The notes under the pieces: generated by a model
The model's input: the letters and a program-made list of their open reading frames with translations, nothing else
What the model was told of the DNA's origin: nothing
The model's database searches: none
Shown: positions 1 to 28,452 of the stretch, piece by piece
How positions within the stretch are numbered: position 1 is the stretch's first letter
Layout of the letters: each line of letters begins with the position of its first letter
Program-made: the position numbers and the translations under genes
Source: Opitutales bacterium
GTDB taxonomy: Bacteria; Verrucomicrobiota; Verrucomicrobiia; Opitutales; Coraliomargaritaceae
Reading direction: 5' to 3'
DNA length: 32,000 nucleotides
NCBI GenBank assembly: GCA_049606355.1
Contig: JBMYVL010000009.1
Span: 1 to 32,000 of the forward strand

Positions 1-779
1 GGCGCTAAGTTCTGATCGAGGTCCATGTGCTCGAGGTGGGCGCGCAGGTGGGTCTTATTGGTCGGGCGGTAGCTCAGCTCCACCGTGCCACCAGTTTTGT
101 TTGAGTATTCGTAAAGCTGGTCCAGGTCGCGCGACATATCCATGCCCATGAAGCGCACCGCCAAATCGTCGTTCACTACGTAGTTGGCGTCAAATTCACC
201 GCGCACATGGTTTTTGTTGCCAACGGTCCCTTTGATGCGAGTGAAGTCTTTATTGTGCTGCGCCATTTTCGGGACGCTGTTGATCAGACCGCCGGGATCT
301 GCCTGGCCATACATCAGGCTGTTCGCCCCTTTGACGATGTCGGCACGCTGAATATTGTAGCCGTCGCGCTCGAGTTCGCGCCAGAAGAGGTCATAGCGCT
401 GGGTCAGGCTGCGGAAGCCGCGAATGCGCAGGCGGTTTTCGGAGAAGCCATCGGGATCGCGGGATACACTGGCGGTCACTTGGTCCAGATCCTGGTCGTT
501 GAGGATGTTGAGGTCCTCCATGAGTTGCTCATTCACCACCGTGAGGGTGATCGGCGTGTTTTTCACCAATTCATTGGTGCGGGTCGCCGAGATCGAATTG
601 GCCGAGTAGTAGCCTTTGTCGTCTGCGGTGCTGACCACAAAATCATCCAGCACATACACTTCTTCGCTGGTGGGCGCAGGGCTCTCGCTCGGGGGGGGCG
701 TTGTGAGTTCCTGGGCGCTTGCGCTAGTAATGCTAGCTAAGCCCAGCAGGCTGAGCAGGTAGGGTAGGGTTCGGTTCAT
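1..779 (-). CDS. TonB-dependent outer-membrane receptor, N-terminal part. The gene continues past the left edge of the window.
   Basis: This ORF is absent from the supplied track because it has no stop inside the window. Reverse-complement translation from the ATG at 779..777 gives MNRTLPYLLSLLGLASITSASAQE, a signal peptide. It continues ...DDFVVSTADDKGYYSANSISATRTNELVKNTPITLTVV...RIRGF...IVKGANSLMYGQADPGGLIN, which are plug-domain signatures. The frame stays open to position 1. The + strand ORF 207..740 is its antisense shadow. Confidence 0.8.
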   Translation of the reverse strand, partial: MNRTLPYLLSLLGLASITSASAQELTTPPPSESPAPTSEEVYVLDDFVVSTADDKGYYSANSISATRTNELVKNTPITLTVVNEQLMEDLNILNDQDLDQVTASVSRDPDGFSENRLRIRGFRSLTQRYDLFWRELERDGYNIQRADIVKGANSLMYGQADPGGLINSVPKMAQHNKDFTRIKGTVGNKNHVRGEFDANYVVNDDLAVRFMGMDMSRDLDQLYEYSNKTGGTVELSYRPTNKTHLRAHLEHMDLDQNLA

Positions 780-992
780 ATCTGGGATCTCGATTTCGGT
801 TAATGAGGTTTATTAAAACTTTTAAACTTTGAGGCGACGCTGCTGAGTTGACAAGAAATTAAACATTAAGTACTCATAATTGTCAGTGGGCGCAGTACCC
901 GTTGTTTGACCCCGCAATGCAAGCTTTATGTGTGCGGCGGCGCCGCTAAGCTGCGTTTGCACAAACTTTTTAAAATCAACCAATCGTTATCC

Positions 993-1792: not shown

Positions 1793-3877
1793 ATGAACAC
1801 ACACCAATCCATCTCGTTTCTTCAGCGTCTACGCAATCACCTGAGCTGTAAGCCGATGCTGTGCGCAGTGGCTGCGCTGCTAGGCCTTGCGACTGTGACG
1901 ATCGCAGCGCAGCGCAGTGATGCCCAGCGCCCCGACATCGTCTTTATTTTATTGGATGATCTGCGCTGGGATGCGCTCAGTTTTATGGATCACCCCTATG
2001 TCGAGACGCCACATATCGACCGCCTGCGCGCGCAGGGTGCGATGATGCAAAATGCGTTTGTGACGACATCGATCTGCTGCCCCTCGCGCGCAACCTTTCT
2101 AACGGGTACGCTGGCCAACCAGCACGGGGTGATCGACAACGAGACCTCGGAGTATAATCCCACGGTTACGCCGCCGCTCACCAAGTACCTGCAGGAAGCC
2201 GGTTACCGCACGGCAATGATCGGCAAGTGGCACATGGGTAAGTCCGGTGCGCCGCGCCCGTACTTCGATTATTGGCTGAGCTTTAAAGGGCAGGGCGTTT
2301 ACAATGATCCGCTTTTCAACATTAACGGCGAAAAAATAAAACACAGTGGTTATACCACGGATTTGCTGACCGACTATGCGATCGATTTTATCGAGCAGCA
2401 GCCCTTGGATCAGCCTTACTTCTGTATGCTTTCCCACAAGGCGGTGCATGAACCCTTTCAACCGGCTCCACGCCACACCGATGCGTTTGGCGCGGCTACA
2501 GTGACGCCGGAACCGGCCAGTTGGTCCGAGGATTTTGCCGACAAGCCGGACTGGCACAAGCGCCAGCGCAGTCGTGATGTCCGCTGGCACTACCGTACCC
2601 GTGAGTATGAGACGGAGCAATTGCCTGACTCAGTGCCCCTCCAGCCATGGAAGTGGAACAACAAATATGTGAAGCAGTTGCGCTGCCTCGCCGCAGTCGA
2701 TGATGGAGTCGGCAAGGTGGTCGAAGCCTTGCGCCGGCGTGGTACGCTGGACAACACGCTCATCGTCTTCACCAGTGATAATGGCTATTTCCATCTGGAA
2801 CACCGCCGCTGGGATAAGCGCCTTGCGTACGAGGAGAGTTTGCGCATCCCGATGGTGGTCGTGTACCCCGGCCATATCGAAGCCGGCGCGTCGATCCCTC
2901 AGTTGATTACCAATGCTGACTTTGCCCCGACGGTTCTCGACTATGCCGGTGTGGCGATTCCGGAGCGCATGCAGGGCAGTAGTATGAAGCCGCTCTTCGA
3001 AGCGTCCGACCCGGAGTGGCGCGACTGCGTCTTCTATGAATATTGGAAGGAGTTGGTGCATGCCATCCCGGCGATGACCGCGGTCCGCACCGATCGCTAT
3101 AAGCTGATTAGCTTCCCTGAAATCGACGATATCGATGAGCTCTACGATCTGGAAAAGGATCCGCATGAAATGAATAATTTGGTGCTCGATCCCGCCCACG
3201 CAGACTTGTATCGCAGCATGCAGCAGCGCATGGCTGAGGAACGGGTGGCGAATCAGTGGCAGCAAAGAGTCTTTCCGAAAAATTTGCCCCGTGTGCGTGG
3301 TGTGGAAGGAGTTTTGCTGGATCTGGCGGTACAGGGCGATGCTGTGGTGGATCGCGCGGAGTCGGGGCTCGCTTTCAATGCTGAAGCGATCGACCTCCAG
3401 GATGATTGCCTGACGTTTGACGGTAAGCAGTCGGCAGTACGCGTTCCATTCCGTCCGCGGATCGATCCGGCCGCTTGGCCGTTTCAAATTGATGTGGAGC
3501 TCAAGCCGGAAGCCGACGGTGTGATTGCAGTACAGTCGACCCCGGGCTATGGCTATAAGCTGTTTGTGCAGGACGGTCGCCCGGGTGTCGCGGTTCATTG
3601 CAAAACTTGGATCGATACCACGACGGTCATTGATGCCCCGGATTCGATTTTGGGAAAGTGGACGCGCTTACAAGTGTCGATCGATTACAACCACTTGCAG
3701 TTGAAGGTAGATGGCAAAGTCGTCGAACAAGTCTCCTTGCCGCTGCCGTTCAAAGGATCGCCGAAGACGCCTCTTGTGCTCGGTAACAAAGGGCGTCATC
3801 CGGTCGCGAAGGGGATTCCCGATCATGCATTGGCAGGGTCGATTCGCTACTATCGTTTGACGCGGGGTAATCCTTAG
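1793..3877 (+). CDS. Cys-type sulfatase (S1 family) with a C-terminal LamG/concanavalin-like domain.
   Basis: - Sulfatase signatures are DIVFILLDDLRWD, SICCPSRATFLTG (the C-x-P-x-R formylglycine motif, Cys codon 2075..2077), IGKWHMG, and FTSDNGYFHLEHRRWDKRLAYEESLRIPMVV.
- The C-terminal ~170 aa (about 3370..3874) reads FDGKQSAVRVP...GKWTRLQVSIDYNHLQLKVDGK...GSIRYYRL, which is LamG-like.
- An alternative start at 1856 (MLCAVAALLGL...) is possible. Confidence 0.9.
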   Translation: MNTHQSISFLQRLRNHLSCKPMLCAVAALLGLATVTIAAQRSDAQRPDIVFILLDDLRWDALSFMDHPYVETPHIDRLRAQGAMMQNAFVTTSICCPSRATFLTGTLANQHGVIDNETSEYNPTVTPPLTKYLQEAGYRTAMIGKWHMGKSGAPRPYFDYWLSFKGQGVYNDPLFNINGEKIKHSGYTTDLLTDYAIDFIEQQPLDQPYFCMLSHKAVHEPFQPAPRHTDAFGAATVTPEPASWSEDFADKPDWHKRQRSRDVRWHYRTREYETEQLPDSVPLQPWKWNNKYVKQLRCLAAVDDGVGKVVEALRRRGTLDNTLIVFTSDNGYFHLEHRRWDKRLAYEESLRIPMVVVYPGHIEAGASIPQLITNADFAPTVLDYAGVAIPERMQGSSMKPLFEASDPEWRDCVFYEYWKELVHAIPAMTAVRTDRYKLISFPEIDDIDELYDLEKDPHEMNNLVLDPAHADLYRSMQQRMAEERVANQWQQRVFPKNLPRVRGVEGVLLDLAVQGDAVVDRAESGLAFNAEAIDLQDDCLTFDGKQSAVRVPFRPRIDPAAWPFQIDVELKPEADGVIAVQSTPGYGYKLFVQDGRPGVAVHCKTWIDTTTVIDAPDSILGKWTRLQVSIDYNHLQLKVDGKVVEQVSLPLPFKGSPKTPLVLGNKGRHPVAKGIPDHALAGSIRYYRLTRGNP

Positions 3878-3916: not shown

Positions 3917-3945
3917 GCGACCGTTGCCGATTCGGCAACGGTCGC
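3917..3945. terminator. Perfect 13-bp stem / 3-nt loop hairpin downstream of the sulfatase gene. It may be a U-tract-less terminator or an RNA-stability element.
   Basis: The sequence is gcgaccgttgccg-att-cggcaacggtcgc. No T-tract follows it on either strand, though a T-run (3897..3905) precedes it on the + strand. Confidence 0.3.
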
Positions 3946-4048: not shown

Positions 4049-7000
4049 ATGATGCTCCAGCCCTTCTCCTTCTGCGTTGCGCTCGCCGCGCTGGCCGCCC
4101 TTGTTGTCGGGCGCCCAACGGCTTCGGCACAGGCAGTTCTCTTCAGCGATAATTTTGATTCCATCGTCAGCGCCGGATCTGACTATATCAGCGGCGCGGG
4201 AGAGTACTCCTACGGCTACGATTCTACGCCGAGTGGTTCTGCCACCAAGGCGATCAACTACGATCAATGGGCGCGCCAGGGGCAAAATTCGATCGCAAGC
4301 GATATCGATGGCGATGGTGATCGTGAGTTGCGACCCAATAAGGACGGGGCAAATAACGCCAAGCTGTGGGGTATTATTCTAAACCCCAGCCATTTCGCTG
4401 GCTATGGCGGGCAAACTTTAACCATCCGTATGGACTTGATTGGTGCGGATCCCGGGAATACGCGCATCTTTCTTGCCGCGGCCAACGGTTACGATGCCTC
4501 CGGTTCAAACACGCTCTTCATGGATGTAACCCAAGGTGGGTTCGGGACGTACACTTCAGCCTCAGGTACGGGGAGTACCACTGTAACTCAGCTGTTCGAA
4601 TATCAGATTCCGGATGAAACCGTTGGTGGATCCTGGAGCCGGGAGTTCACTTATACCGAAGGCGATGCCCTGATTTTGACCTTTGGTTCCTATAACTCAT
4701 CCTATGCCTTCGACAATTTGAGTATTAGCGACGCATCTGCGCCGCCACCACCGCCACCGCCACCGCCGCCGCCTGTTGATTTTGATCCGAATCCGGACGG
4801 TGGAGTGGAACCCGCGCCGCTACCGAGCCTGGATCCCGCACCGAATGTGGTGATCTTTATCGCCGACGATATGGGCATTGGCGACACCAGCGCGTACCAG
4901 GACTTGACGGGTAATGCCGATAGTGTGCAGATCGATACGCCCGAAATGGAGCGTCTGGCAAATCTGGGCACTCGTTTCACGGATGCCCACACCAATGGCG
5001 CGACCTGCAGCCCGACCCGGATCAGTCTGCTCTCGGGTACGTATTCCTTTCGCTCGCCTCTGAAGACGGCGGCAGTTCAGGACACGAACCACACGCACGG
5101 TGTGATCCTTCCGGGGCGCCGCACCACGATCGCTCATATGCTGCAGCGCGCCGGCTACCGTACCTATGGCTACGGCAAGTGGCACATGGCCCTCCGTGGT
5201 GATGCGGGGGCGGATACCAATAGCGATGGGATCCTGGATCAGACGGGCACGGGCATTGTTTACGAAGGTCCGATCGAGAGCGGCTTCGATACCTACACCG
5301 GTACGCCGGGTAACTTTAGCTACGCGGGCGCGATGCTGCAGGATAAGCAATACGTGCGATTCGGGAGTGCGGCTCCGAATGATTATTCGCTGGTGCCGAT
5401 CAACGATCCGAGTGCGCAGCCCTGGCTTGGCCAAGGGCCCAATCAGCCGACCGATCCGAATCTGTACAAGGTCCAGCCGGCCGTCTTTGAGAAGCTCCAA
5501 TCCGATCTCGCAAACCACATGGATTCGCAGGCTGACGAGCCCTTCTTTATCTATTATGCCTCACATTCGAATCACGACCCCTGGGTGCCGGCCAATTACG
5601 AGCCCGACCACCCCGACGGCCCGCGTGCCTCGCTCAATGACACCATCATCGATACGAATGTGACCAAGGCGGGCGGCATGATCGAGATTGCCACGGTTCC
5701 CGACAGCTCGGGGGATGGTATCCCCGATCCCGACTATTCGCTTTACGATGGCAACGGGACCTCTTGGATCTGGAACGATGCCCTGCGTGTTAAGATGTGG
5801 GATCATGTGACGGAGGTCGATGCGCAGGGGAACATCACTGTCAACGGCCCGACCAACCGCGCGATGATGGTGCAGGAAAATGATGTGATCGTGGGCTACC
5901 TGCTCGATTTCCTGGAGCAGACCGACGACCCGCGCAATCCGGGCCACAAGCTCATCGACAATACGATCTTTATCTTCACTTCGGACAACGGCGCGGATGC
6001 CAAGAGCGAAGCCGCTGTCGGTGCCTTGCCACAGAGTAGTGATGGCGTCATTACCGACCTGACTGGCTTTAAGGGCAGTCGCTGGGAGGGCGGTAGCCGG
6101 GTGCCGTTCATCGCGGCCTGGCCAAATCCGGCCGATGCCAATCAAGCCAGCGGTATTCCGGCCGGCGCCACCTCGTCGGCCATCTTTGGTCTCAATGATG
6201 TGTACGCCACGCTTGCCGAGGCGATCGGTCACCGACTGCATCCCGAGGAAGCGGTGGACAGTGAGTCTCTCCTGCCGGCCTGGACTGCTGGGCAGGGTGG
6301 TACGGTGCGTTCCACGGATCTGCTATCCAAGTTCCAGCAACGCATCTTTTCCCGACGCGGTGAGTTCAAGCTGGCGGCCCTCGATTCTGACTTTCCGGGC
6401 AGTTTAACGGTCGAGCAGGCCAGGCAGGACCGCTTCGCCGACAACAATGAGCTCGATTTCGATGACATGGTCATCGATACCGGGCAGTGGGCTCAGTATG
6501 TCCGCAAATTCGTCGACCTCTCGAATGACCTTAGCGAGTTGAACGATCTGGGTGCCACATCGATGGCCAATGACATGTTGGCGTCGCTGCAGACCCTGAC
6601 GACGCAAGGCTACAGCCGTGAGGGTGCGTCTGACTTTGAGAATGGGCTCAATTTTGAAGGGGGTGACTTGCAGACCGCTTCCAACTGGCACGCCTACAAG
6701 TCTTCCCGAAACGATCAACTGCCCAGCGGTGAAACCCCCGGCATTCTTGCCGAGGATGGCAGTGCCAGCGGCGACCTGAACGCGCTGACATTGGTGCACC
6801 GCGCGGGGACGCTGAGCTACAATCCGGGCACCAGTGGAGGCTTGAGCAATAGTCATTACGAACTCGATGGTGGCAGGCTGAATGTGAGCGACGACCTGCG
6901 CCTGAGCAACGCGCGCATGGAGCTCTACCGCGGCCAAGTCAACTTGGGCTTTAACGAACTCCAACTCACGGGCAGTAACGCGGTGGTGATTCTCTCAGGT

Positions 7001-9634
7001 GCAGACCTGACCGCTGCCCGGCTCTCGGTCGCGGAGGCCGCCGGCGCTACAGAAGGCTTCAAAATCATCCGTATTAAGGGGGAGGCAGGCACCCTGGAAC
7101 TCACCGGATATGATCCGATCGGATTTGCGGACGATGGTAGCGCAAGCAACGATTATATCGATTTCGTGACCGGAGCGCACGGCCGCTTGGTTACCACTCA
7201 AAGTGCCGCTTACTTTTCGGCGCTATGGGATAGTGGCCAACTGCGGATCGATGGCGCAGCCGGTGCTCCGGGTGCGTTCGACAGTTCCCCATTTCAGTTC
7301 ATTGCACTGGGGGATGGTCGCTACGCCCTCGAACTCGAGAGTGGTATAACGCCACCGCCCACGCCGAAGGAGCACATCACCTCCGGCCCGAACTTCATTA
7401 TCATCGTGCCCGATGACCACCGCTGGGATGCCACTAGCTTTTTGCAAAACCGCATCGTTTCCGACTTCGGTCGGATTCAGCGCTATCCCTATCTGACCGG
7501 CCCGGATCGCACGCCAAACATGGATCGCCTCGCCACCGAAGGGTTGTATTTTGACAACGGCTTTGTGACGTATTCGCTGTGCTCGCCATCGCGCGCCACC
7601 ATGCTGACCGGGGTCCAACCCTTTGTGCATGGCATCACTGCCAACGCGGACGAGTTTGATGTGAATGACGATACCTATGCCAAGCGGATGCAGGCCGCCG
7701 GTTGGTCGACCGGTTATTTCGGTAAATGGCACATGGGTAAGCAGACGGAGCGTCCCGGTTTTGACCACGTGCGTACCTTCTATGGGCAGGGCTCGTATTA
7801 TGAGGCGTCTTTTTACGACGAAGACAGCAATCTGGTACAAACCACAGGAGCCCGTAACACCAGTGGCGGGTCCGATGAGGACAACTGGGTGGACAAGGTG
7901 TCGACGGATTATCTGCTCAATTACCTCAATGCCTGCTACGCGGCAGATGAGCGTTTTCTGGCCTTCCTCGGCTTTAAGACGCCGCACGACCCGCGGGTGT
8001 CCGATGGTGTCAGTAATGCCCCGGTTGCCTCGAGCTCCGCCGCGAATTTCCGTGGGCTGTTTAGCGGCGTCACGCAGGTGGATGTGCCCAATTCGCTAAG
8101 CCAAAACGGCGATGCGCCCGTATGGAAGCCCAATACGAATCAGGGCCACGGCGGCAGCAACACGGAAGCCTACATGGAGCTGATTGCGGGGATCGACCAT
8201 CAGGTCGGTCGCGTCCTCGACAAACTGGATGCGCTTGGCATCGCCGAGAATACCGTCGTCATCTACATTTCTGACAATGGCTATTTTCGAGGCGAGCACG
8301 GGCTGGGGGACAAGCGCGCCGGCTATGAGGAAAGCCTCCGCGTGCCGTTTATGATTCGCTACCCGGCCATTCAGCCGGCAGGTGCCGGCCTGCTGCCGAC
8401 GGCGAAGATTGGCCTCAATTTGGACATTGCGCCGACGATTCTGGATATCGCCGGTCTCCCCGTCCCGCAACACATGCAGGGGCGCAGCCTGAAACCTTTA
8501 CTCGAAGGCACGGTGCCGAGCGATTGGCGCGAGTCCTTTGTCTTTAGTTACGTCGACGATCCGGAGTATGCGGCGACGGACCCTGCCGATATGGTGGGTA
8601 TTCGTACTGAGTCGGGCTATAAATTGATTCGCTATGCGGAGGACTCGGGCTGGGATGAGCTCTTCGATGTGCGTGCCGCCGCGCCGAACGATGCGAAGTA
8701 CGAAAACAACAACTACATCGCCGATTCCACTTACGCCGCCACCTTGGCGGACTTACAGCGAGACTTGGAGCTCGGCTTGCGTGCCAGTGGCCTCATGGAT
8801 ACGGTAGCGACGCGTACCAGCCGCCTGCCTTTTGAGACCGATTTCATCGCAGGCGACCGCTACCCCTTCCTGGTCGAGAAGTCCGCGGATCTCCAGAATT
8901 GGCAGACGACCGCCGCATTTGAGGGCAGTGGCGAAGTCGCGACCCTCGATCTCTCGGGTGGGGCGCCAGCCGCCTGGGACATCAGCGTGATCGGTGCGGC
9001 AGCCGACTACGCCATTCGCTACAATCCGCTGACCGAGACCACCGATGCGCTCGCGTCGGGCGAGGCGGTCCTCCAGTTCGGCGGCAAAGTCGAGACCGAT
9101 CGAAATGATGGCTATGATGCGGTGCTGGTCTTCGAACTGCCGGTACTCCCCGCCAATACTGTTCTCACCGCCGCGCAGTTGGAGATCTACGCGAGTCGAC
9201 AATGGGCACTGTACGATGCCGACCTCTGGGCGATCGGCATCCAGGCGGATACGACGCCACTCCTTGAGTATCACGAACACGAACCCTTTGCCGGTAATGT
9301 GAAGCTTCAGGACCGCTTGATGGATCATGGACTCGCTGCCGTGCCGACGTATACCACGGTGACCTCGAGCTTGGCCAATGGCCTGGCTCCCTATCTCCGC
9401 GAGTTCTATCAGGCCAACCCCGGTTACAGTGGGGGCCACTATCTTTTCCTGCGGATCAACAGCGATATTAACGTACGCGATCTGGCGCTGGAAGGAAATG
9501 ATGGTCGTAACTTCCGCGTGAGCTCGGCGAACAGCGCTTCAAACAAGCCCGTGCTGCACCTCTCGCACACGCCACCGTCTGCAGGGGAGCAGGAGTTCTA
9601 TCGCATCCGCTACGGCCTACCGACAGCACCCTGA
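4049..9634 (+). CDS. Giant secreted multidomain protein (1861 aa). Domain order is signal peptide, lectin-like module, Pro11 linker, sulfatase domain 1, unknown spacer, sulfatase domain 2, unknown C-terminal domain.
   Basis: - The signal peptide is MMLQPFSFCVALAALAALVVGRPTASAQA.
- The module at 4136..4732 is paralogous to the gene at 10090.
- An 11-Pro run occupies 4742..4774.
- Sulfatase 1 spans about 4841..6620. Its signatures are NVVIFIADDMGIGD, TCSPTRISLLSG (Cys codon 5006..5008), YGKWHMA, FIFTSDNGAD, and KGSRWEGGSRVPFIAAWP.
- Sulfatase 2 spans about 7388..8800. Its signatures are NFIIIVPDDHRWD, LCSPSRATMLTG (Cys codon 7580..7582), FGKWHMG, and YISDNGYFRGEHGLGDKRAGYEESLRVPFMI. Confidence 0.9.
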   Translation: MMLQPFSFCVALAALAALVVGRPTASAQAVLFSDNFDSIVSAGSDYISGAGEYSYGYDSTPSGSATKAINYDQWARQGQNSIASDIDGDGDRELRPNKDGANNAKLWGIILNPSHFAGYGGQTLTIRMDLIGADPGNTRIFLAAANGYDASGSNTLFMDVTQGGFGTYTSASGTGSTTVTQLFEYQIPDETVGGSWSREFTYTEGDALILTFGSYNSSYAFDNLSISDASAPPPPPPPPPPPVDFDPNPDGGVEPAPLPSLDPAPNVVIFIADDMGIGDTSAYQDLTGNADSVQIDTPEMERLANLGTRFTDAHTNGATCSPTRISLLSGTYSFRSPLKTAAVQDTNHTHGVILPGRRTTIAHMLQRAGYRTYGYGKWHMALRGDAGADTNSDGILDQTGTGIVYEGPIESGFDTYTGTPGNFSYAGAMLQDKQYVRFGSAAPNDYSLVPINDPSAQPWLGQGPNQPTDPNLYKVQPAVFEKLQSDLANHMDSQADEPFFIYYASHSNHDPWVPANYEPDHPDGPRASLNDTIIDTNVTKAGGMIEIATVPDSSGDGIPDPDYSLYDGNGTSWIWNDALRVKMWDHVTEVDAQGNITVNGPTNRAMMVQENDVIVGYLLDFLEQTDDPRNPGHKLIDNTIFIFTSDNGADAKSEAAVGALPQSSDGVITDLTGFKGSRWEGGSRVPFIAAWPNPADANQASGIPAGATSSAIFGLNDVYATLAEAIGHRLHPEEAVDSESLLPAWTAGQGGTVRSTDLLSKFQQRIFSRRGEFKLAALDSDFPGSLTVEQARQDRFADNNELDFDDMVIDTGQWAQYVRKFVDLSNDLSELNDLGATSMANDMLASLQTLTTQGYSREGASDFENGLNFEGGDLQTASNWHAYKSSRNDQLPSGETPGILAEDGSASGDLNALTLVHRAGTLSYNPGTSGGLSNSHYELDGGRLNVSDDLRLSNARMELYRGQVNLGFNELQLTGSNAVVILSGADLTAARLSVAEAAGATEGFKIIRIKGEAGTLELTGYDPIGFADDGSASNDYIDFVTGAHGRLVTTQSAAYFSALWDSGQLRIDGAAGAPGAFDSSPFQFIALGDGRYALELESGITPPPTPKEHITSGPNFIIIVPDDHRWDATSFLQNRIVSDFGRIQRYPYLTGPDRTPNMDRLATEGLYFDNGFVTYSLCSPSRATMLTGVQPFVHGITANADEFDVNDDTYAKRMQAAGWSTGYFGKWHMGKQTERPGFDHVRTFYGQGSYYEASFYDEDSNLVQTTGARNTSGGSDEDNWVDKVSTDYLLNYLNACYAADERFLAFLGFKTPHDPRVSDGVSNAPVASSSAANFRGLFSGVTQVDVPNSLSQNGDAPVWKPNTNQGHGGSNTEAYMELIAGIDHQVGRVLDKLDALGIAENTVVIYISDNGYFRGEHGLGDKRAGYEESLRVPFMIRYPAIQPAGAGLLPTAKIGLNLDIAPTILDIAGLPVPQHMQGRSLKPLLEGTVPSDWRESFVFSYVDDPEYAATDPADMVGIRTESGYKLIRYAEDSGWDELFDVRAAAPNDAKYENNNYIADSTYAATLADLQRDLELGLRASGLMDTVATRTSRLPFETDFIAGDRYPFLVEKSADLQNWQTTAAFEGSGEVATLDLSGGAPAAWDISVIGAAADYAIRYNPLTETTDALASGEAVLQFGGKVETDRNDGYDAVLVFELPVLPANTVLTAAQLEIYASRQWALYDADLWAIGIQADTTPLLEYHEHEPFAGNVKLQDRLMDHGLAAVPTYTTVTSSLANGLAPYLREFYQANPGYSGGHYLFLRINSDINVRDLALEGNDGRNFRVSSANSASNKPVLHLSHTPPSAGEQEFYRIRYGLPTAP
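4742..4774 (+). repeat. (CCN)11 low-complexity tract encoding 11 consecutive prolines, forming an interdomain linker.
   Basis: The tract ccg cca cca ccg cca ccg cca ccg ccg ccg cct is in frame with the CDS starting at 4049. The antisense ORF 4702..4995 reads it as poly-Gly and is an artefact. Confidence 0.95.
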
Positions 9635-9993
9635 TGGAGACACCATCGCATCTGCGGTCGCGGTCTCCTCTGCCAGCGGCGCTTGCGGGTGGGCTGCCCT
9701 GCCGCGCATCAACGGATGCGAGAGTGGGTGGGTCCCGCTGGGGCTCTGCTTTGCGCCCGAGTGTTTAGGATGGGCGCCCCGCTACGGCCTGCGACAAGCG
9801 CTTCGGTAGTCGTGTCGCCGCGTCGCAATGGGACGCTCGCTGGCAAAGAAGTGGAGACGAGCAGAAGAGAGGCGATAAGATGAATGTTTTATAGAAAAAA
9901 AGGTTACTTTTCGCTCAGCCAGCCCCATATTTATGAATTAAGTACTTGTTGGACAATGCCTTAATAAATTTTACGCAGTTTAAACTTTTTGGG

Positions 9994-10022
9994 TTGACTG
10001 AATTTATGACTTTTAGTTAATT
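9994..10022 (+). promoter_or_regulatory. Candidate promoter for the PEP-CTERM gene, inside a ~200-bp AT-rich stretch.
   Basis: TTGACT sits at 9994..9999, and TTAATT follows 17 nt downstream at 10017..10022. It is preceded by the AT-rich tttaaacttttt at 9979..9990. The -10 element is weak, so the call is tentative. Confidence 0.25.
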
Positions 10023-10089
10023 TTGTGGTTAATCCTAAATCCGTATTTCATAATACGTCTTTTATTAACCTACCCTCATTGATTACCCT

Positions 10090-10860
10090 ATGAAAAAACT
10101 AACCACCTCAGTCGCCTTAGTGGGCGCATTGTTTGTGACTTCGAGTGCATCGGCACAGACAGTTCTCTTCAGTGATGATTTTGACCCTACGTTTAGCGCC
10201 GGAGCTGAGTTCCTCAGCGGTGCTGGGCAGTATTCATTCGGCTACGACTCAACGCCATCCGGTGGCGCGACTAAAGCGATCAACAACTACGATCAATGGA
10301 TGCGCCAAGGTGCCAATTCCATCGCAAGTGACCTTGATTCGGATGGTGACTTGGAGCTGCGCCCCAATAAGGATACTGCTAACAACGGCAAAATGTGGAG
10401 TGTGATTCTCGACCCAGTTCACTTTGTGGGTCAGGGTGGTAACACACTTACCCTCAGTGTTGATTTGATCGGTGCTGACGACGGTGCGGCCCGTGTGTAC
10501 CTTTCGTCAGCTAGTGGTTATGACGCCACTGGTTCGAACGACTTGCTTGTAAAAGCTTCGCATGGTGGCTTAGCTACATCGAATGCATCCGGCACCGGCA
10601 GCACGGTTGTAACTGAGATCTTCGATGACGCTAATAATGGAGGCGGTATTGCAATTGCAGACACAACCGTCAGCGGAAGCTTTACGCAAGATTTCACCTA
10701 CACGGAAGGCGATGCACTGATCGTATCGTTCGGTGCGTACAACAGTGCGATTGGTTTTGATAATCTGTCTATTTCTGCTGTTCCAGAGCCGTCTTCATAC
10801 GCGCTGCTGGCAGGTGCCCTGGCGTTGACTTCGGTCATGCTGCGCCGCCGTCACGTATAA
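10090..10860 (+). CDS. PEP-CTERM-anchored surface protein with a lectin-like module, paralogous to the N-terminus of the giant sulfatase.
   Basis: - The signal peptide is MKKLTTSVALVGALFVTSSASAQ.
- The body (10162..10779) aligns by eye along its length with residues 30-228 of the protein starting at 4049.
- The C-terminus VPEPSSYALLAGALALTSVMLRRRHV (10780..10857) has the PEP motif, a hydrophobic helix and an Arg cluster. That is the PEP-CTERM exosortase sorting signal. Confidence 0.85.
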   Translation: MKKLTTSVALVGALFVTSSASAQTVLFSDDFDPTFSAGAEFLSGAGQYSFGYDSTPSGGATKAINNYDQWMRQGANSIASDLDSDGDLELRPNKDTANNGKMWSVILDPVHFVGQGGNTLTLSVDLIGADDGAARVYLSSASGYDATGSNDLLVKASHGGLATSNASGTGSTVVTEIFDDANNGGGIAIADTTVSGSFTQDFTYTEGDALIVSFGAYNSAIGFDNLSISAVPEPSSYALLAGALALTSVMLRRRHV

Positions 10861-10900
10861 GCTACTGGCTGAATTTTAAGGGATATGGGGATATTCCCTA

Positions 10901-10932
10901 AGAGGCGGACTTCGGTCCGCCTCTTTTTTTTT
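10901..10932 (+). terminator. Rho-independent terminator of the PEP-CTERM gene.
   Basis: The structure is gaggcggac-ttcg-gtccgcctc, a 9-bp GC-rich stem with a tetraloop, followed by nine T at 10924..10932. Confidence 0.85.
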
Positions 10933-10973
10933 AGCGTTTTCAAGTACTGGGTCGCGTGTGTAGCCTGGGGCAC

Positions 10974-11582
10974 ATGCAATGGATCATCGCCACGGGTAAC
11001 GTACACAAGGTCGAAGAGTTTGAAAGCTTACTGCACGGGCTCCCCGTTGAGTTACACTCAGCCGAGGTCTGTGGTGGTATGCCGCCGGTTGTAGAGGACG
11101 GCACAAGCTTTGTGGCCAATGCCCACAAAAAAGCCGCTGCGCTGCAGCGCGTGGCACCGCCGGGAGCTTGGATCCTGGCAGATGACTCGGGCTTGGAAGT
11201 CGATGCGCTGGAAGGGGCGCCGGGGGTGTATTCAGCGCGCTATGCGGGGCCGCAGGCGAGTGATGCGCAGAACGTCGCCAAGTTGCTCGACGCACTCCAG
11301 GAAGTCCCTGTGGCAGAGCGCGGCGCGCGCTTCCGCTGTGTGCTCTGTTTGATCGACCCGGATGGCTGGGTTACCCATTATGCGGGTGCCTGCGAAGGGC
11401 AGATCGCCAAGGGCAGCAGTGGCGCTGCCGGCTTTGGCTATGATCCGGTCTTTATACCGGCTGGTTATCGGCAGAGCTTTGCCGAGCTGGGGGATGTCGT
11501 GAAAAGCCAGCTCAGCCACCGCGCGCAGGCAGTTGCAGCCATGCGCGCAGTGCTTGAAGGTTCGGAGCTTGCAGACGCTTAG
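10974..11582 (+). CDS. rdgB: dITP/XTP pyrophosphatase (non-canonical purine NTP pyrophosphatase, RdgB/HAM1 family).
   Basis: Signatures are [64 protein letters not shown] and SFAEL...SHRAQA. The tracked ORF starts at GTG 10956, but the ATG at 10974 gives the canonical N-terminus. Confidence 0.85.
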
Positions 11583-13630
11583 GTCGGCTCCACCCACTTG
11601 CCGTGCGCCTGAATCAGCTCGATGAGGCGATCGAGTGCTTCGTTGGCGGGTACATTGTAGGCAACGCAGTCCTTGCCGACATAGAGATTGATCTTGCCCG
11701 GTGCGCCACCGACATAACCGAAATCAGCATCTGCCATTTCGCCGGGGCCATTGACGATGCAACCCATGATCGCAATGGTCACGCCTTTCAGGTGGTCGGT
11801 GCGGGCACGGATGGTTTGGGTCACGCTTTGTAGGTCAAAGAGCGTGCGGCCGCAGCTGGGGCAGGCGACGAATTCGGTTTTGGAGATACGTGCCCGGGCG
11901 CCCTGGAGGATGTTGTAGGCGAGGCTCGTGCCCTTATCGAGGCGTGGCTCCGTTTCGATACTAATCGCATCGCCGATGCCGTCGCAGAGCAGGGCACCGC
12001 TCAAGATGCTGGCTTCGATCAGGCGGTCGCTGAAAAAATCACGTGGAGCGAGCGTATTGGCGGCAGTGTTGCGCAGCCAGATCGGTACATCCGGCAAGTA
12101 GCTTTGGCTCACTGCGTGCAGTGCGCGATAATGCCCTACGGCATGGCTGTCGTCGTCGGGGCGCCGGCAACACAAGACTAAGCCTGCTGTGCCCATCGGC
12201 TGTAGTTGCGCGCCGACGGCTTCGCGCAGGGCTTGAGCGCTGCAGTCGAGGGCCAGATTGAAGCCATGTTCGCGGCAAAAGTGCAGGAGCTGGGCAGCGT
12301 AGTACGCGTCTTCCGCGGCGACCGTCTGTAATAGGGTAATGCCAGCCATGCCGTCCGGCCAGGTGTAGCGCTCCAGGTCGCTGAGGTCGATGGCCGCGCC
12401 GAGCTCTAAAATAAAGCATTGTACGACACTGTGCAGGGCCTCGTGCAGCCCGCTAAAGGCCTGCAGATCGTCCGTGTGATCGATGGCGACTTGTAAGCCT
12501 TCCAGGCGGCTCTCTTTGAGTTGAGTCTGGGTCTGGCATACCGCTTGAATGATGCCGGCCGCATCGCTCAGCGGCTCGGCCGCTTTGACGATCACTGCGG
12601 GTGCTGCGTCTCCGCCGATACGGCATTGCGGCCCAAGCTCCAGCACACGCGCCTGCCGGCGCTTGAATTGGTAGGGGTCGATCGAATCCTTGCTTTCGGG
12701 GTAGGGTGCCGGGCGCTGTTGCCACAGGGCCATTGCCTTATCCGCTAAATCGCGGGCTACCGGAATCTCGTAAATTGGGTCTTCGGTGAGTGAAACGCGC
12801 AGGGTGTCGCCGAGGCCATCGTTGAGCAGCGAGCCAATTCCGATGGCACTTTTGACACGGGCGTCTTCGCCATCCCCGGCTTCGGTCACGCCGAGGTGAA
12901 GCGGGTAGTGCATGTCCTCTTGTTGCATGCGGGCGACTGCCAAGCGATAGGCCTCAATCATTACCTTCGGATTGCTGGCTTTCATCGAGAGGCAAAGATT
13001 GCGGTAGCCGTGACTCTCTGCGATGCGAATAAACTCCAGCGCGCTCTCCACCATGCCGAGGGGCGTATCGCCGTAGCGATTCATGATGCGATCGGAGAGT
13101 GAACCGTGGTTCGTGCCAATGCGCATCGCGCGACCCAGTTCCTTACAGCGGCAAATGATCGGCGAGACCGATTCGTAGAGGCGCTCCAGTTCCTCGTTGT
13201 ATGCGGCATCGCTGTATTCCTGAACGGCGAATTTCTTTTTATCGGCGTAATTGCCGGGGTTGATACGCACCTTGTCAACATGCTTGGCAGCTTCCATCGC
13301 CGCAGCAGGCAGAAAGTGAATATCTGCCACGAGCGGTACCTCGCACTTCGCCGCGCGTACTTCCTTGGCAATCGCGCCCAGTGCGGCTGCGGCTTTTTTA
13401 TTCGGTGCCGTGATCCGCACAATCTCACAGCCGGCCTCGGCGAGAGCCAGCGTCTGCCGCACGGTTGCCGCGATATCCTGTGTGTTGGTGGTCGTCATCG
13501 ACTGCACCCGCAGGGGGTGGTGGCCGCCAATCCCGACACCGCCGACGGTGACGACCGAGCTGAGGCGGCGGACTGCCTGAAAGCGTGATGCACAATAATC
13601 GACTGCGGTGGCGGATGGGGTGCTCATCAT
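11579..13630 (-). CDS. ispG: 4-hydroxy-3-methylbut-2-enyl diphosphate synthase, long form with an inserted A*-type domain.
   Basis: - The TIM-barrel domain shows [22 protein letters not shown] and RINPGN...GTNHGSL.
- The Fe-S domain shows [14 protein letters not shown] and [22 protein letters not shown].
- About 275 aa (roughly residues 296-570, nt 11921..12745) lie between positions that are contiguous in the 372-aa E. coli enzyme. Confidence 0.95.
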
Positions 13631-13651
13631 CTCAATACGTATGGGCTTGGG

Positions 13652-15094
13652 CTAAGGCGTAAGCCCTGCGTCGTCAGCTGGCTCAGCGGGAGTCTCAACG
13701 GGTGCCTCATCTTTGATCAAACCGGCACTCCGCCCAACTCGACCGATGTCGAAGAAACTCACATAGGCGACAAAAGCCAGTAGCAGGAGCACAAAAGCAA
13801 ACTGTACGCGCTCCATCAGCTTGCGCGGTAGGGGGCGTCCGATGAGTTTGGCGATGGTCGCAAACAGCATGTGGCCGCCATCGAGCACCGGGATCGGTAA
13901 GAGATTAAACAGCGCCAAGTTGACGTTGATCAGCGCCAGGAACCAAATCAGGTCGACCCAGCCGTAGCGAGCCATCGTACTCAAGCCATGCACGATGCCA
14001 ACCGGGCCGCTCATATTACGCACTTTAACATCCGAATCTCGGTGGATCAGCGCGTACAGGGTCTGGCGCATGGTATTGGCAAATTGCAGCATTTGTTCGG
14101 CAGGATTGTAATGCACGCGCTCGGTCTTGAAGGGATAGTCGTAAGCGAAGCCGAAGCGTGGCAATTGTTCGCCCGCTTTGATGCGTGGCTGCACCGGTAT
14201 GACGATGGTGTCGCCGTCACGCTCGACGGTAATCGCAATGCTGCGATCGCCGTGGTTGGCTAAATAAGTGCTTAAGAAACCGCTTGAGATCACGCGCTCA
14301 CCGTCGAGCTCCAGGATGCGATCGCCGGTTTGCAGGCCGGCTGCCAAGCCGGGCATATCGGACTCCAAGTATACGATCATCGGGGCGGCATTGCGATCCG
14401 AGATCGGATATATGCCAAGGTGACGAATGCCTTCGGTGGAGACTGTTTCGGGATAAGCCGTGAGCGTCAGGCTTGCTCCATCGCGTAGAATGCCGAGTTC
14501 GACAACGGCCCGGCCATCCTGTGTGCGACCGGTACTGGTCATCAATGCATTTTGGTACTGCATCCAATTGCCGATGGCTTGCCCATCGACACTGAGGATC
14601 GTATCGCCTTTTTGAATACCGGCGGCTTGTGCGGGACCGACAACGGTCTGTTTGTCGGTATTGATAACCGTCTCGGCGATATAGCCGACTTCGGTAGTTT
14701 TGATGATTTCTCGACCGACACCCCATAACAGCAGCGAGAGAATGAAGGCGAGGATCAGGTTGCACACCGCACCCATCAGCGCGACGATCATTTTATCGGC
14801 ATACGAAATGGGCGGTAGTGTGGCACTGTCAGTGTCTTCGGCGCCCTCGAGTCGGCCCATGTCAGCAAGTTGCGGCAGAGAGACATAACCGCCGAGTGGT
14901 AGCAGTGAGACGCGAAAGTCAGTGCCGTACTTGTGCCAGCCAAACAAGCGGGGACCAAAACCGATGGAAAAGCGATCGGCGATGAGGCCGCGTTTCTTCG
15001 CGGCTAAGAAATGGCCGAGCTCGTGAATGAAAATGGAGAAGCCCAGGCAAAACAGGGCAATTGCGATAAACCAAAGATTTGTCAGGAGGGACAT
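13652..15094 (-). CDS. rseP: RIP site-2 zinc metalloprotease with PDZ domains.
   Basis: It carries the HELGHFLAAK HExxH motif in the first transmembrane segment, central PDZ-like segments, a C-terminal NLLPIPVLDGGH motif, and the conserved position after dxr. Confidence 0.9.
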   Translation of the reverse strand: MSLLTNLWFIAIALFCLGFSIFIHELGHFLAAKKRGLIADRFSIGFGPRLFGWHKYGTDFRVSLLPLGGYVSLPQLADMGRLEGAEDTDSATLPPISYADKMIVALMGAVCNLILAFILSLLLWGVGREIIKTTEVGYIAETVINTDKQTVVGPAQAAGIQKGDTILSVDGQAIGNWMQYQNALMTSTGRTQDGRAVVELGILRDGASLTLTAYPETVSTEGIRHLGIYPISDRNAAPMIVYLESDMPGLAAGLQTGDRILELDGERVISSGFLSTYLANHGDRSIAITVERDGDTIVIPVQPRIKAGEQLPRFGFAYDYPFKTERVHYNPAEQMLQFANTMRQTLYALIHRDSDVKVRNMSGPVGIVHGLSTMARYGWVDLIWFLALINVNLALFNLLPIPVLDGGHMLFATIAKLIGRPLPRKLMERVQFAFVLLLLAFVAYVSFFDIGRVGRSAGLIKDEAPVETPAEPADDAGLTP

Positions 15095-15105
15095 CGTTGA
15101 GAGTA

Positions 15106-16299
15106 CTAAAGTGAAGCGCCGTTGGAAGTTTGAGTTGGATTGAAGTTTCTCGCGACTGCTCGAGTGGCGGCATCGATTGCGAGTAAGGCTTCGACACTAT
15201 TGGGGGCAATGGTTTGCCCCTGATTCAGGGCAAAGTCGATGACCCGCGGAATGTCTAGATAACCAATCGCACCATCGAGGAACCGTGCGACGGCAATTTC
15301 ATTGGCGGCATTGTAGACTGCGGGGGCACTGCCACCTGCCTGCAAGGCTTCGTAAGCCAAGCGCAGGCAGGGGTAGCGAGCGAAGTCGGGGGCGCTGAAA
15401 TCCCACTGCATGGCTTGCTGGAAATCCAGCGTTGGCTCGACGCCTGGGGCGCGGTCGGGGTACAACAAGCAGTGTTGGATGGCAAAAGTCATCGAGGGGG
15501 GGCTGAATTGGCCTAAGATCGAACCATCGACAAACTGCACGAAGGAATGTGCGATACTCTGAGGGTGGAGGACGACTTCCAGGCGAGCCGCTTCCAAGCC
15601 GAATAGCCAGTGTGCTTCAAACAGTTCCAAGCCCTTGTTGGCCATCGTCGCCGAGTCGACGGTGATTTTACGACCCATCGACCAATTCGGGTGCTGCGTC
15701 GCATCCGTCGGTGTCACTGCTGCCAGTTGCTCGATCGGAGTGTCGCGAAATTGCCCACCGGAGGCGGTTAAAATGAGCTTCTGTACATGCTGCTGCGGGT
15801 GCCCTTCGATACATTGGAAGATCGCATTGTGCTCGCTGTCGGTCGGTAGTAGCGGCACGCCTTTGCGTCGGGCGGCTTCGATCACAAAGGCCCCGCCCAA
15901 TACCAGGAGTTCTTTGTTTGCCAGTGCGATTGCCTTGCCCGCATGAATAGCCGCGAGCGCCGGTTGCAGCCCGCAGGCACCCACCACGGCCAGCACGACC
16001 AGATCGGCATCCGCGAGGGTCGCCATTTCCACGAGGGCGTCCTCTCCTCCGTGCAGTTGCGTGCCATGCGGGAATTCTCCCGCTGCCTTCGCCGAAGTGT
16101 AGGCGGCTTCGTCGCTCAAGGCCGCATGCGGCACCTTGAATTCCTGGCAGATGGCTGCCAGCGCAGCGTGGTTGCTGCATGCCGCGACGCCGATCAGTTG
16201 CAAGCGGTCGGCATGTTGCCGCAGCACGCGTAATGTACTGCTACCGATCGAGCCAGTGGCTCCGAGCAGAACAATTTTTTTGCGCGCGGGATCACTCAT
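15106..16299 (-). CDS. dxr: 1-deoxy-D-xylulose-5-phosphate reductoisomerase.
   Basis: Signatures are KKIVLLGATGSIGSSTL (the NADPH-binding N-terminus), LANKE, DSEHNAIFQC, HPNWSMG and NAANE. Confidence 0.95.
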   Translation of the reverse strand: MSDPARKKIVLLGATGSIGSSTLRVLRQHADRLQLIGVAACSNHAALAAICQEFKVPHAALSDEAAYTSAKAAGEFPHGTQLHGGEDALVEMATLADADLVVLAVVGACGLQPALAAIHAGKAIALANKELLVLGGAFVIEAARRKGVPLLPTDSEHNAIFQCIEGHPQQHVQKLILTASGGQFRDTPIEQLAAVTPTDATQHPNWSMGRKITVDSATMANKGLELFEAHWLFGLEAARLEVVLHPQSIAHSFVQFVDGSILGQFSPPSMTFAIQHCLLYPDRAPGVEPTLDFQQAMQWDFSAPDFARYPCLRLAYEALQAGGSAPAVYNAANEIAVARFLDGAIGYLDIPRVIDFALNQGQTIAPNSVEALLAIDAATRAVARNFNPTQTSNGASL

Positions 16300-16308
16300 C
16301 GCTGGGTC

Positions 16309-17139
16309 CTAAAAAAGCGTGTATTTAAAAAGTAAATACCCAAGCGGTGCCGTTAGGATCAAACTATCGGCTAAGTCAAAAAAACCACCAATTCCGGGGA
16401 TAACCGTTCCGGAATCCTTTACCCCTGCTTGACGCTTGAATGCGGACTCAACGAGATCAGAGGCGATCGACGCAACCGCCACCGGAATGGCGATTAAAAT
16501 CGCCAGCCACCAAGTTAAGCCAGCGGGTGCCTGTGCGTGAAATAGGCTGAGTAGGATTAAGCCGACAAGGGCAGCGACGATGATCCCTCCGGCGGCTCCT
16601 TCGTAGGTTTTCTTGGGGCTAATCACCGACAGTGGAGTTCGTCCGATGCGCATGCCGACGAGCAGGCCCCCGACATCGGTGCTCTTCGCCACTGCCACGA
16701 TCCACACGGTTAAAAACACGCCGGTTCCGGTGCTGTACTCGTTGAGCTCAGCCAGGCGCACGATTTTGATGAGGAAGTGCAGCAGGTAGGGCACGTAGAT
16801 CAGACCGAAAAGGGTCGGCATGAAACTGCGTAAGCGCCCCGCTTGTAAGTCCATGCGAATAATCGTCAGGGTGAGGACCAGAAAGCTGAGCAAGAATAGA
16901 TCGTTTCCTGCATCTAAGCCCCCCATGTAGTAGGAGCCGACGGTAATGATGACACCGCCGCCGACACCCAGCGCTTTGATCGGATGCAGGCCCATCTTTT
17001 CAAACAGCTGATAGAGCTCCAGCTGCGTGAAGAGGGCGATGCCGGCAATCAGCAATACACCTGCATGGACTCCGAAGAGCAGGAGGGAGATACCAAGAAT
17101 CGCCCATAGGGCGGTGAAACTAAAAATACGCTGGCGCAT
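16309..17139 (-). CDS. cdsA: Phosphatidate cytidylyltransferase.
   Basis: It is a polytopic membrane protein with the C-terminal signature SAFKRQAGVKDSGTVIPGIGGFFDLADS, and it sits between uppS and dxr. Confidence 0.9.
   Translation of the reverse strand: MRQRIFSFTALWAILGISLLLFGVHAGVLLIAGIALFTQLELYQLFEKMGLHPIKALGVGGGVIITVGSYYMGGLDAGNDLFLLSFLVLTLTIIRMDLQAGRLRSFMPTLFGLIYVPYLLHFLIKIVRLAELNEYSTGTGVFLTVWIVAVAKSTDVGGLLVGMRIGRTPLSVISPKKTYEGAAGGIIVAALVGLILLSLFHAQAPAGLTWWLAILIAIPVAVASIASDLVESAFKRQAGVKDSGTVIPGIGGFFDLADSLILTAPLGYLLFKYTLF

Positions 17140-28378: not shown

Positions 28379-28452
<74 letters not shown>

Follow-up and report, generated by a model that had tools for sequence, protein, structure and literature searches.

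A 32,000-nucleotide (nt) stretch of DNA from an Opitutales bacterium (GenBank assembly GCA_049606355.1, contig JBMYVL010000009.1, positions 1 to 32,000; hereafter the window) carries near its left end a gene (4049..9634, forward strand) whose predicted product, as analysis of the sequence confirms, is a secreted protein with two complete and different Cys-type sulfatase catalytic domains in one open reading frame (ORF). It is highly probable that this gene is a real and evolutionarily recent in-frame fusion of adjacent sulfatase genes from a conserved glycan-utilisation cluster of marine Opitutales (Verrucomicrobiota), as evidenced by relatives in which the two halves are still separate neighbours, intact copies in independent assemblies, and confinement of the fused form to a single shallow clade. 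Sulfatases control access to sulfated marine polysaccharides, which makes them part of ocean carbon turnover, and bacteria of the PVC group encode very many of them, the substrates of most being not known.

The reading frame and its two sulfatase domains

The ORF runs uninterrupted from an ATG start over 1861 amino acids (aa), without an internal stop, and comprises the following parts.

4049..4129, forward strand: predicted signal peptide (aa 1-27, ending in TASA before QAV), with a hydrophobic core ahead of its AxA site
4130..4732, forward strand: N-terminal module (aa 28-228), a beta-sandwich as in small PEP-CTERM proteins
4733..4834, forward strand: Pro-rich linker (aa 229-262, including P11), read from the sequence
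4835..6373, forward strand: sulfatase domain 1 (aa 263-775), PF00884, closest to S1_15
5006..5020, forward strand: formylglycine motif 1, CSPTR (Cys320), from motif reading and ARSA alignment
6374..7345, forward strand: middle region (aa 776-1099), ~100 aa modelled with low confidence and then an all-beta domain (aa ~880-1099)
7346..7375, forward strand: fusion junction and linker ITPPPTPKEH (aa 1100-1109), the homology switch point
7376..8818, forward strand: sulfatase domain 2 (aa 1110-1590), PF00884 and SGSH_C, closest to S1_11
7580..7594, forward strand: formylglycine motif 2, CSPSR (Cys1178), from motif reading and ARSA alignment
8819..9634, forward strand: C-terminal region (aa 1591-1861 and the stop codon), a conserved domain without a known family

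The Pfam profile PF00884 is matched twice over its full length, at aa 265-727 (119 bits) and aa 1114-1469 (148 bits) with a cut-off of 25, and scanned alone it returns E-values of 2.8e-34 for domain 1 and 6.1e-43 for domain 2; a Pfam match to SGSH_C (aa 1415-1574) lies within the second domain. Only two [CS]x[PA]xR motifs occur in the fused protein, CSPTR at aa 320 and CSPSR at aa 1178, exactly at the positions given in a first-pass annotation that had been made from the sequence without database searches. Both motif stretches, CSPTRISLLSGT (aa 320) and CSPSRATMLTGV (aa 1178), align with C69-R73 of human ARSA, in a sequence whose numbering reproduces the published catalytic positions. Ten ARSA residues (D29, D30, C69, R73, K123, H125, H229, D281, N282 and K302) are invariant in the alignment of domain 1, domain 2 and the stand-alone sulfatase encoded upstream (1793..3877). 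Profile, signature and residues of both domains fit the formylglycine-dependent sulfatases of SulfAtlas family S1. The first-pass proposal of two complete, different Cys-type domains in this 1861-aa ORF is thus borne out, and the loss of essential residues, which it had named as a possible refutation, is seen in neither domain. With a mutual identity of only about 27-29%, domains 1 and 2 are different enzymes.

Subfamily leads for the two domains rest on the nearest solved structures and not on SulfAtlas models. The best matches of domain 1 are the S1_15A structure 9bas (3.5e-34), the S1_15B structure 9bau, 7oze and 6s20 (a GalNAc-6-O-sulfatase), which range to 1.2e-28 and lead the next structures by 5-10 orders of magnitude. 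Against these S1_15 structures only the N- and C-terminal stretches of domain 1 align, with long unaligned insertions between them, the central part carrying extra insertions of about 60 aa or more. Domain 2 matches best 5g2v (a GlcNAc-6-sulfatase, rank 1, 7.7e-61), 9s03, 7p24 and 7lha (rank 6, E 1e-43). Two of these, 5g2v and 7lha, are members of S1_11, a subfamily that covers GlcNAc-6-, L-galactose-6- and mannose-6-sulfatases (PMC13063451), and 5g2v is also the best solved structure for the gene at 1793..3877 (E 7.6e-87). On this evidence domain 1 appears closest to S1_15, of which it is a putative member, and domain 2 closest to S1_11, that is, to exo 6-O-sulfatases.

Origin of the fused gene and its modules

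Homology along the protein switches once between the two catalytic domains. Residues from about 240 to 1099 are 47-76% identical to single-sulfatase proteins of ~1200 aa (P0002-P0019), in alignments that all end at aa 1096-1105; these first-gene proteins run on with a tail of ~125 aa (TSP3-type DxDxDG repeats and then a small beta domain ending FYKVQVFLP) that the fused protein does not have. Stand-alone proteins of ~1020 aa (P0023 and P0024) match residues 1100-1861 at 72-74% identity across 99% of that stretch, and many other full-coverage relatives among those listed (735-1037 aa) do so at 41-66%. First-gene homology ends at ...ALELESG1099 and, beyond a ten-residue Pro/Thr linker, second-gene homology starts at ITSGPNF, which corresponds to aa 285 of the 1037-aa second-gene protein of locus L002. 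The junction-spanning stretch covers nt 7331-7391, and a tryptic peptide over the junction would span ...YALELESGITPPPTPK.

In relatives the two halves are encoded by separate genes lying side by side. On L002, a TARA scaffold and the closest unfused relative, the first gene (10001-13630) and the second (13641-16754) share a strand across a 10-nt gap; they are likewise adjacent and co-oriented in L084, L005 and L003, and in the more distant L167 both are present in the same cluster, not adjacent. The unfused first gene (~1200 aa) encodes a signal peptide, an N-module, an S1_15-like sulfatase, the all-beta domain and a TSP3-like/beta-sandwich tail, and the second (~1020-1040 aa), after a spacer of about 10-50 nt, a signal peptide, an N-module, an S1_11-like sulfatase and the 270-aa C-terminal domain. 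In the window lineage ~1.2 kb of this arrangement is missing, most simply through a single in-frame deletion that joined the co-oriented neighbours. Gone are ~128 codons at the end of the first gene together with its stop codon, the intergenic spacer, and the ~275-285 codons for the signal peptide and N-module of the second gene. The join lies within inter-domain linkers (G1099, ITPPPTPKEH, ITSGPNF), with all remaining domains intact. Both boundaries are also used by natural variants, namely second-gene proteins of 735-790 aa without an N-module and the first-gene protein P0017 without a tail.

The fused form was not found in 185,579 species-representative genomes, in a junction-spanning scan of JGI metagenome contigs, or, with aa 662-1861 as query, among 1.84 billion representative proteins searched exhaustively by HMMER, where each match covered query positions 1-437 or 433-1197 and never both. 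It is confined to one shallow clade with nucleotide divergence of at most 1.4%, and all relatives, at 47-76% identity, are unfused; the fusion is thus the derived and recent state. JGI sample 3300046170 holds both a fused copy (L164) and the unfused relative L003, which is 71% identical in the first half.

Intact copies of the ORF have been assembled repeatedly. The 90%-identity cluster of the fused protein has 26 members, six of which are full-length (1860-1861 aa) and come from independent ENA, NCBI and JGI assemblies: P0001, P0294 (identical to the window), P0295, P0298, P0300 and P0307, with 0-25 residue differences from the window. The NCBI copies among the six are the Opitutales metagenome-assembled genome (MAG) proteins MGB0264330.1 and MGB0273178.1, and samples with the fused gene include JGI 3300046170, ERZ23492432 and ERZ27284531. 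One copy lies on a JGI contig of 879,634 bp in which neighbouring genes show frameshift-type splits and the fused ORF is intact. Five DNA alleles, 98.6-99.6% identical, each have a single terminal stop and no polymorphism in the junction linker.

These data bear on three other accounts of the gene. Two genes could have been joined on paper by chimeric assembly or by an overlooked stop or frameshift, and the architecture is indeed rare: in a sample of 122 sulfatase ORFs from 83 related loci, counted by separated matches to the sulfatase N-domain, the only double one is the same gene on L001, and on one contig of the cluster (142,645 bp) the gene is broken into parts of 189, 1011 and 650 aa. Such an artefact, which the first-pass annotation had asked to be checked between the domains, is nonetheless barely credible and can be excluded, since at least six independent assemblies and five alleles carry the ORF intact, with the junction linker invariant, and since it is whole on the 879-kb contig despite split neighbours. 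The fused state might instead be ancestral and the two-gene state a product of fission, as both processes are seen in this cluster: a 287-aa ORF and the sulfatase-LamG gene that follows it form one ORF in L084 and L004 and two genes here. This is very improbable, because the genes are separate in all relatives from 47% to 76% identity, because fission would have to create a first-gene tail as well as a second-gene signal peptide and N-module, and because the fused form occurs only in the shallow clade.

Domain 2 might, finally, be a recent local duplicate of the gene at 1793..3877 that was then fused, as the first-pass annotation had suggested from the likeness of the two. The likeness itself is genuine: domain 2 is nearer to this gene than to domain 1, the two share the DNGYF...EESLR block that had been quoted, both are closest to S1_11 structures, and SGSH_C is found in the upstream gene as well. 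Their mutual identity is, however, only 32-35%, against 72-80% between domain 2 and second-gene orthologues and 70-72% between gene 1793..3877 and its own orthologues in the same foreign loci (L002, L003, L005 and L084). A neighbour-joining tree places the two in separate old clades, and in relatives a second-gene orthologue occupies the exact place of domain 2. The proposal therefore holds for the fusion and fails for the duplication, which we regard as very unlikely, and the reading retained is that of a recent in-frame fusion of two neighbouring genes.

The N-terminus adds a further component. Residues 3-235 of the fused protein, signal peptide included, are 59% identical to the PEP-CTERM protein encoded downstream (10090..10860), and the N-module is 60-77% identical to stand-alone proteins of ~250 aa (P0143-P0150) that consist of a signal peptide, this module and a PEP-CTERM anchor. 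The signal peptide of the fused protein aligns with those of these stand-alone paralogues, the ASAQ junction being common to all. In comparison, the N-module of the fused protein shares only 30-33% identity with those of first-gene orthologues, while the cores of those orthologues reach 47-65%. Because the N-module (with the signal peptide, window positions 4049-4753) is closer to PEP-CTERM proteins than to first-gene N-modules, it has been swapped with such a paralogue, and the pattern indicates replacement by recombination. The fused protein is, on these comparisons, a mosaic from three genes.

The first-pass annotation had also described an N-terminal module and two regions of no known family, and a signal peptide, a beta-sandwich and two Pfam-negative regions are indeed seen. 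The AlphaFold2 (AF2) model of the N-module has a mean pLDDT of 63 (core 70-90), and its fold matches are weak, comprising the jelly-rolls of MAM, the Fbs1 sugar-binding domain, a porphyran-binding carbohydrate-binding module (CBM), CBM6 and CBM22 (E about 2e-4, TM 0.33-0.43). A binding role would fit this likeness to jelly-rolls. The poly-Pro linker behind the module also occurs in the first-half homologue P0005. The middle region is kept in all first-half homologues, whose alignment stops at aa 1099, and its all-beta domain (aa about 880-1099, nt 6680-7345) is modelled by AF2 with pLDDT above 90. A fold search of the PDB with this domain gave no match with E below 1, its weak top matches being beta-helix proteins, and as modelled the domain may have an undescribed fold. 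It is conserved throughout the family of 1200-aa first-gene proteins.

Pfam and sequence or profile searches of the PDB returned no match above threshold for the N-module, the middle region or the two lost parts (the tail of the first gene and the N-module of the second). The C-terminal region (270 aa), which the listed stand-alone relatives of the second gene (735-1037 aa) share, likewise stays below the Pfam threshold, and not even a profile search of the PDB finds a related sequence. The idea that this region is a split copy of the first-gene beta-sandwich tail was dropped after hhalign gave an E-value of 0.03 and a probability of 1.7% over 39 columns.

Selection, proposed function and the surrounding cluster

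Segregating sites among five closely related alleles were classed along the gene, with binomial p values against neutrality.

Domain 1: 21 synonymous, 3 non-synonymous; p 6e-11
Middle region: 12 synonymous, 2 non-synonymous; p 1.7e-6
Domain 2: 16 synonymous, 5 non-synonymous; p 5e-7
N-module and linker: 23 synonymous, 17 non-synonymous; p 8.2e-6
C-terminal region: 10 synonymous, 15 non-synonymous; p 0.064

Comparing the window with L001 alone, the ratio of non-synonymous to synonymous polymorphism (pN/pS) is 0.03 for each catalytic domain. As the fusion is common to all alleles, this selection acted after the fusion. Purifying selection combined with intact catalytic residues argues, at the level of sequence, that both enzymes are in use.

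Several functional steps can be proposed from these features. Cys320 and Cys1178 would be converted to formylglycine by a maturase encoded elsewhere, and the one Sec signal peptide, at the N-terminus, would direct export of the whole chain. Each domain would then take a different sulfate ester off one shared glycan or the oligosaccharides from it. For domain 2 the most likely activity is that of an exo 6-O-sulfatase on hexose or hexosamine, for domain 1 one on a substrate of the Gal/GalNAc-6-sulfate type, and the fusion would fix a 1:1 stoichiometry and hold both enzymes together. The earlier description of the protein as a multi-specificity machine for one heavily sulfated polymer is plausible as a hypothesis. 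A more specific and more tentative suggestion, which we consider possible and no better than that, is that the fusion is adaptive. Tethering S1_15-like and S1_11-like enzymes and a CBM-like module would on this view give an enzyme with two cooperating sites, able to remove two different sulfate esters from a single marine glycan (perhaps a sulfated polymer that contains mannose) more efficiently than separate enzymes.

The fusion could also be real and yet a by-product of deletion that is heading to decay, with one half (most likely the second) useless, or with a misexported or misfolded product. The youth of the fusion and its restriction to a single shallow clade would fit such a fate, as would the loss of two modules in the deletion and the site counts of the C-terminal region, which do not differ significantly from neutrality. 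We nonetheless judge decay to be unlikely: both catalytic domains show a strong synonymous excess and retain all catalytic residues, no allele has a stop or frameshift, the fused allele is present in samples from several sources, and the lost modules are dispensable in natural relatives.

Some points do weigh against the reading of a recent fusion of two functioning sulfatases. The closest unfused relative is only about 72-76% identical, a divergence that blurs the exact ancestral break points and any microhomology at them. For the selection test the two catalytic domains contribute 45 segregating sites, all from closely related alleles. The C-terminal region is near neutral, so that part of the second half may be under relaxed constraint since the fusion, or it may be diversifying. 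The window contains no gene for a formylglycine-generating enzyme or anSME, and the fused protein could be cleaved at the linker after export. The subfamilies are assigned by nearest solved structures, and the substrate is a guess.

The gene lies in a conserved cluster at the left end of the window, formed by a TonB-dependent receptor gene, a 287-aa ORF, an S1_11-like sulfatase-LamG gene, the fused gene and a PEP-CTERM gene. Most of the remaining window is housekeeping (ispG, rseP, dxr, cdsA, uppS, uvrB and gyrA). The members of the cluster around the fused gene are as follows.

3..809, reverse strand: TonB-dependent receptor gene, partial, running off the window; 58-72% identical to the receptors of L002, L003 and L004
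906..1769, forward strand: 287-aa ORF, conserved cluster member, syntenic in L002, L003 and L005
1793..3877, forward strand: stand-alone sulfatase with a LamG-like C-terminus (Pfam), closest to S1_11; an old paralogue of domain 2
10090..10860, forward strand: PEP-CTERM protein gene, PF07589 at the C-terminus; local paralogue of the N-module

The 287-aa ORF has no Pfam match. In L084 (442-3321, 960 aa) and L004 (14023-17055, 1011 aa) it forms one continuous reading frame with the sulfatase-LamG gene, and this joining is, to judge from the loci compared, a second fusion or fission event in the cluster. L002 has an extra sulfatase gene (7485-9944, 819 aa), which separates the sulfatase-LamG gene from the first gene. 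Neither the window nor L003 contains it, and the cluster thus varies in gene content. Just beyond the receptor, GH130 and a type I mannose-6-phosphate isomerase are encoded both in L164 (1-6000), a longer contig from the same species, and in L003 (200-4750), and L164 has another sulfatase there as well. Together with the TonB-dependent receptor, these neighbours hint at a mannose-containing sulfated marine glycan; a sulfated glycan with mannose or galactose would be a reasonable guess at the substrate. The nearest genome is a Coraliomargaritaceae MAG, and NCBI members of the protein cluster are named Opitutales bacterium.

A scan of the window for promoters and terminators gave counts not above shuffled expectation, the only convincing element being a terminator-like hairpin at 10900-10925 (11-bp stem, T7) after the PEP-CTERM gene. 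A perfect 12-bp stem-loop without a T-run, GCGACCGTTGCC-GATT-CGGCAACGGTCGC, lies at 3917-3945 in the spacer upstream of the fused gene. Unrelated to the fusion, a tRNA-Gln (anticodon TTG) is found at 28379-28452, between a pyrH-like gene and a peptidase U32 gene.

Significance and comparison with known systems

The locus documents a change in sulfatase repertoire for which the state before (two genes) and the state after (one fused gene) are both available, with break points that map to domain linkers and population data indicating that both halves are still under selection. The fusion also suggests that both enzymes serve the same substrate stream, which would allow guilt-by-association for two little-studied sulfatase lineages and three accessory domains. 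Should the tentative adaptive reading be true, the presence of fused and unfused sister lineages in one metagenome would amount to a natural experiment on the fusion of pathway enzymes, and the protein, a well-defined candidate, would become the first characterised example of its two-sulfatase type.

Rare as they are, proteins with two sulfatase domains are already known, a comparable fusion having been reported in 2016. No biochemical study of such a protein was found in the literature searched, the SulfAtlas papers do not discuss two-sulfatase proteins, and the multidomain enzymes of the Akkermansia sulfatase paper have a single catalytic domain each. Here two complete domains stand in one ORF across assemblies, and each half is a separate, adjacent gene in relatives. 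Five other multi-sulfatase clusters were retrieved: P0162 (Planctomycetota MAG, PCH81286.1), P0201 (Bacteroidota MAG, MCP4310298.1), P0176 and P0194, each with two PF00884 domains, and P0261, with three domains and two CxPxR-type motifs; most domains have a motif of their own. In contrast to the fused protein described here, all five are compact tandems (950-1390 aa) that lack the N-module as well as the middle and C-terminal domains. As fusions they are unrelated to it, and none unites the first-gene and second-gene families.

The single-enzyme families offer a second comparison. Structures of S1_15 (9BAS, 9BAU and 6S20) are the best matches of domain 1, which shares their full catalytic set. 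Members of S1_11 (BT4656, 5G2V; L-galactose-6-sulfatase, 7LHA/7LJ2; mannose-6-sulfatase PbSulf2) are those matched best by domain 2 and the gene at 1793..3877, and their layout of Sulfatase and SGSH_C with a complete catalytic set recurs in domain 2. Typical S1_11 members are, however, single-domain enzymes of about 520 aa, whereas domain 2 bears a 270-aa C-terminal domain and sits behind another sulfatase. PbSulf1-GH195 of the diatom sulfated-mannan pathway (PMC13063451) resembles the fused protein in uniting two catalytic domains for one sulfated glycan in one secreted protein, the parts of which are encoded by O. pacifica as two separate genes. It differs in that the partner is a glycoside hydrolase, the sulfatase belongs to S1_51 and the activities have been shown experimentally, while here both domains are predicted sulfatases.

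The closest precedent comes from the Planctomycetes P1 and P2 from Porphyra blades (Kim et al. 2016, PLoS One, PMC4807772), in which one gene likewise encodes two sulfatase domains of different origin. Those strains belong to another phylum, the pair consists of an arylsulfatase-A-like and an iduronate-2-/choline-sulfatase-like domain, and neither unfused adjacent orthologues nor break points or selection data accompany it; the protein described here adds three non-catalytic modules to its two sulfatases.

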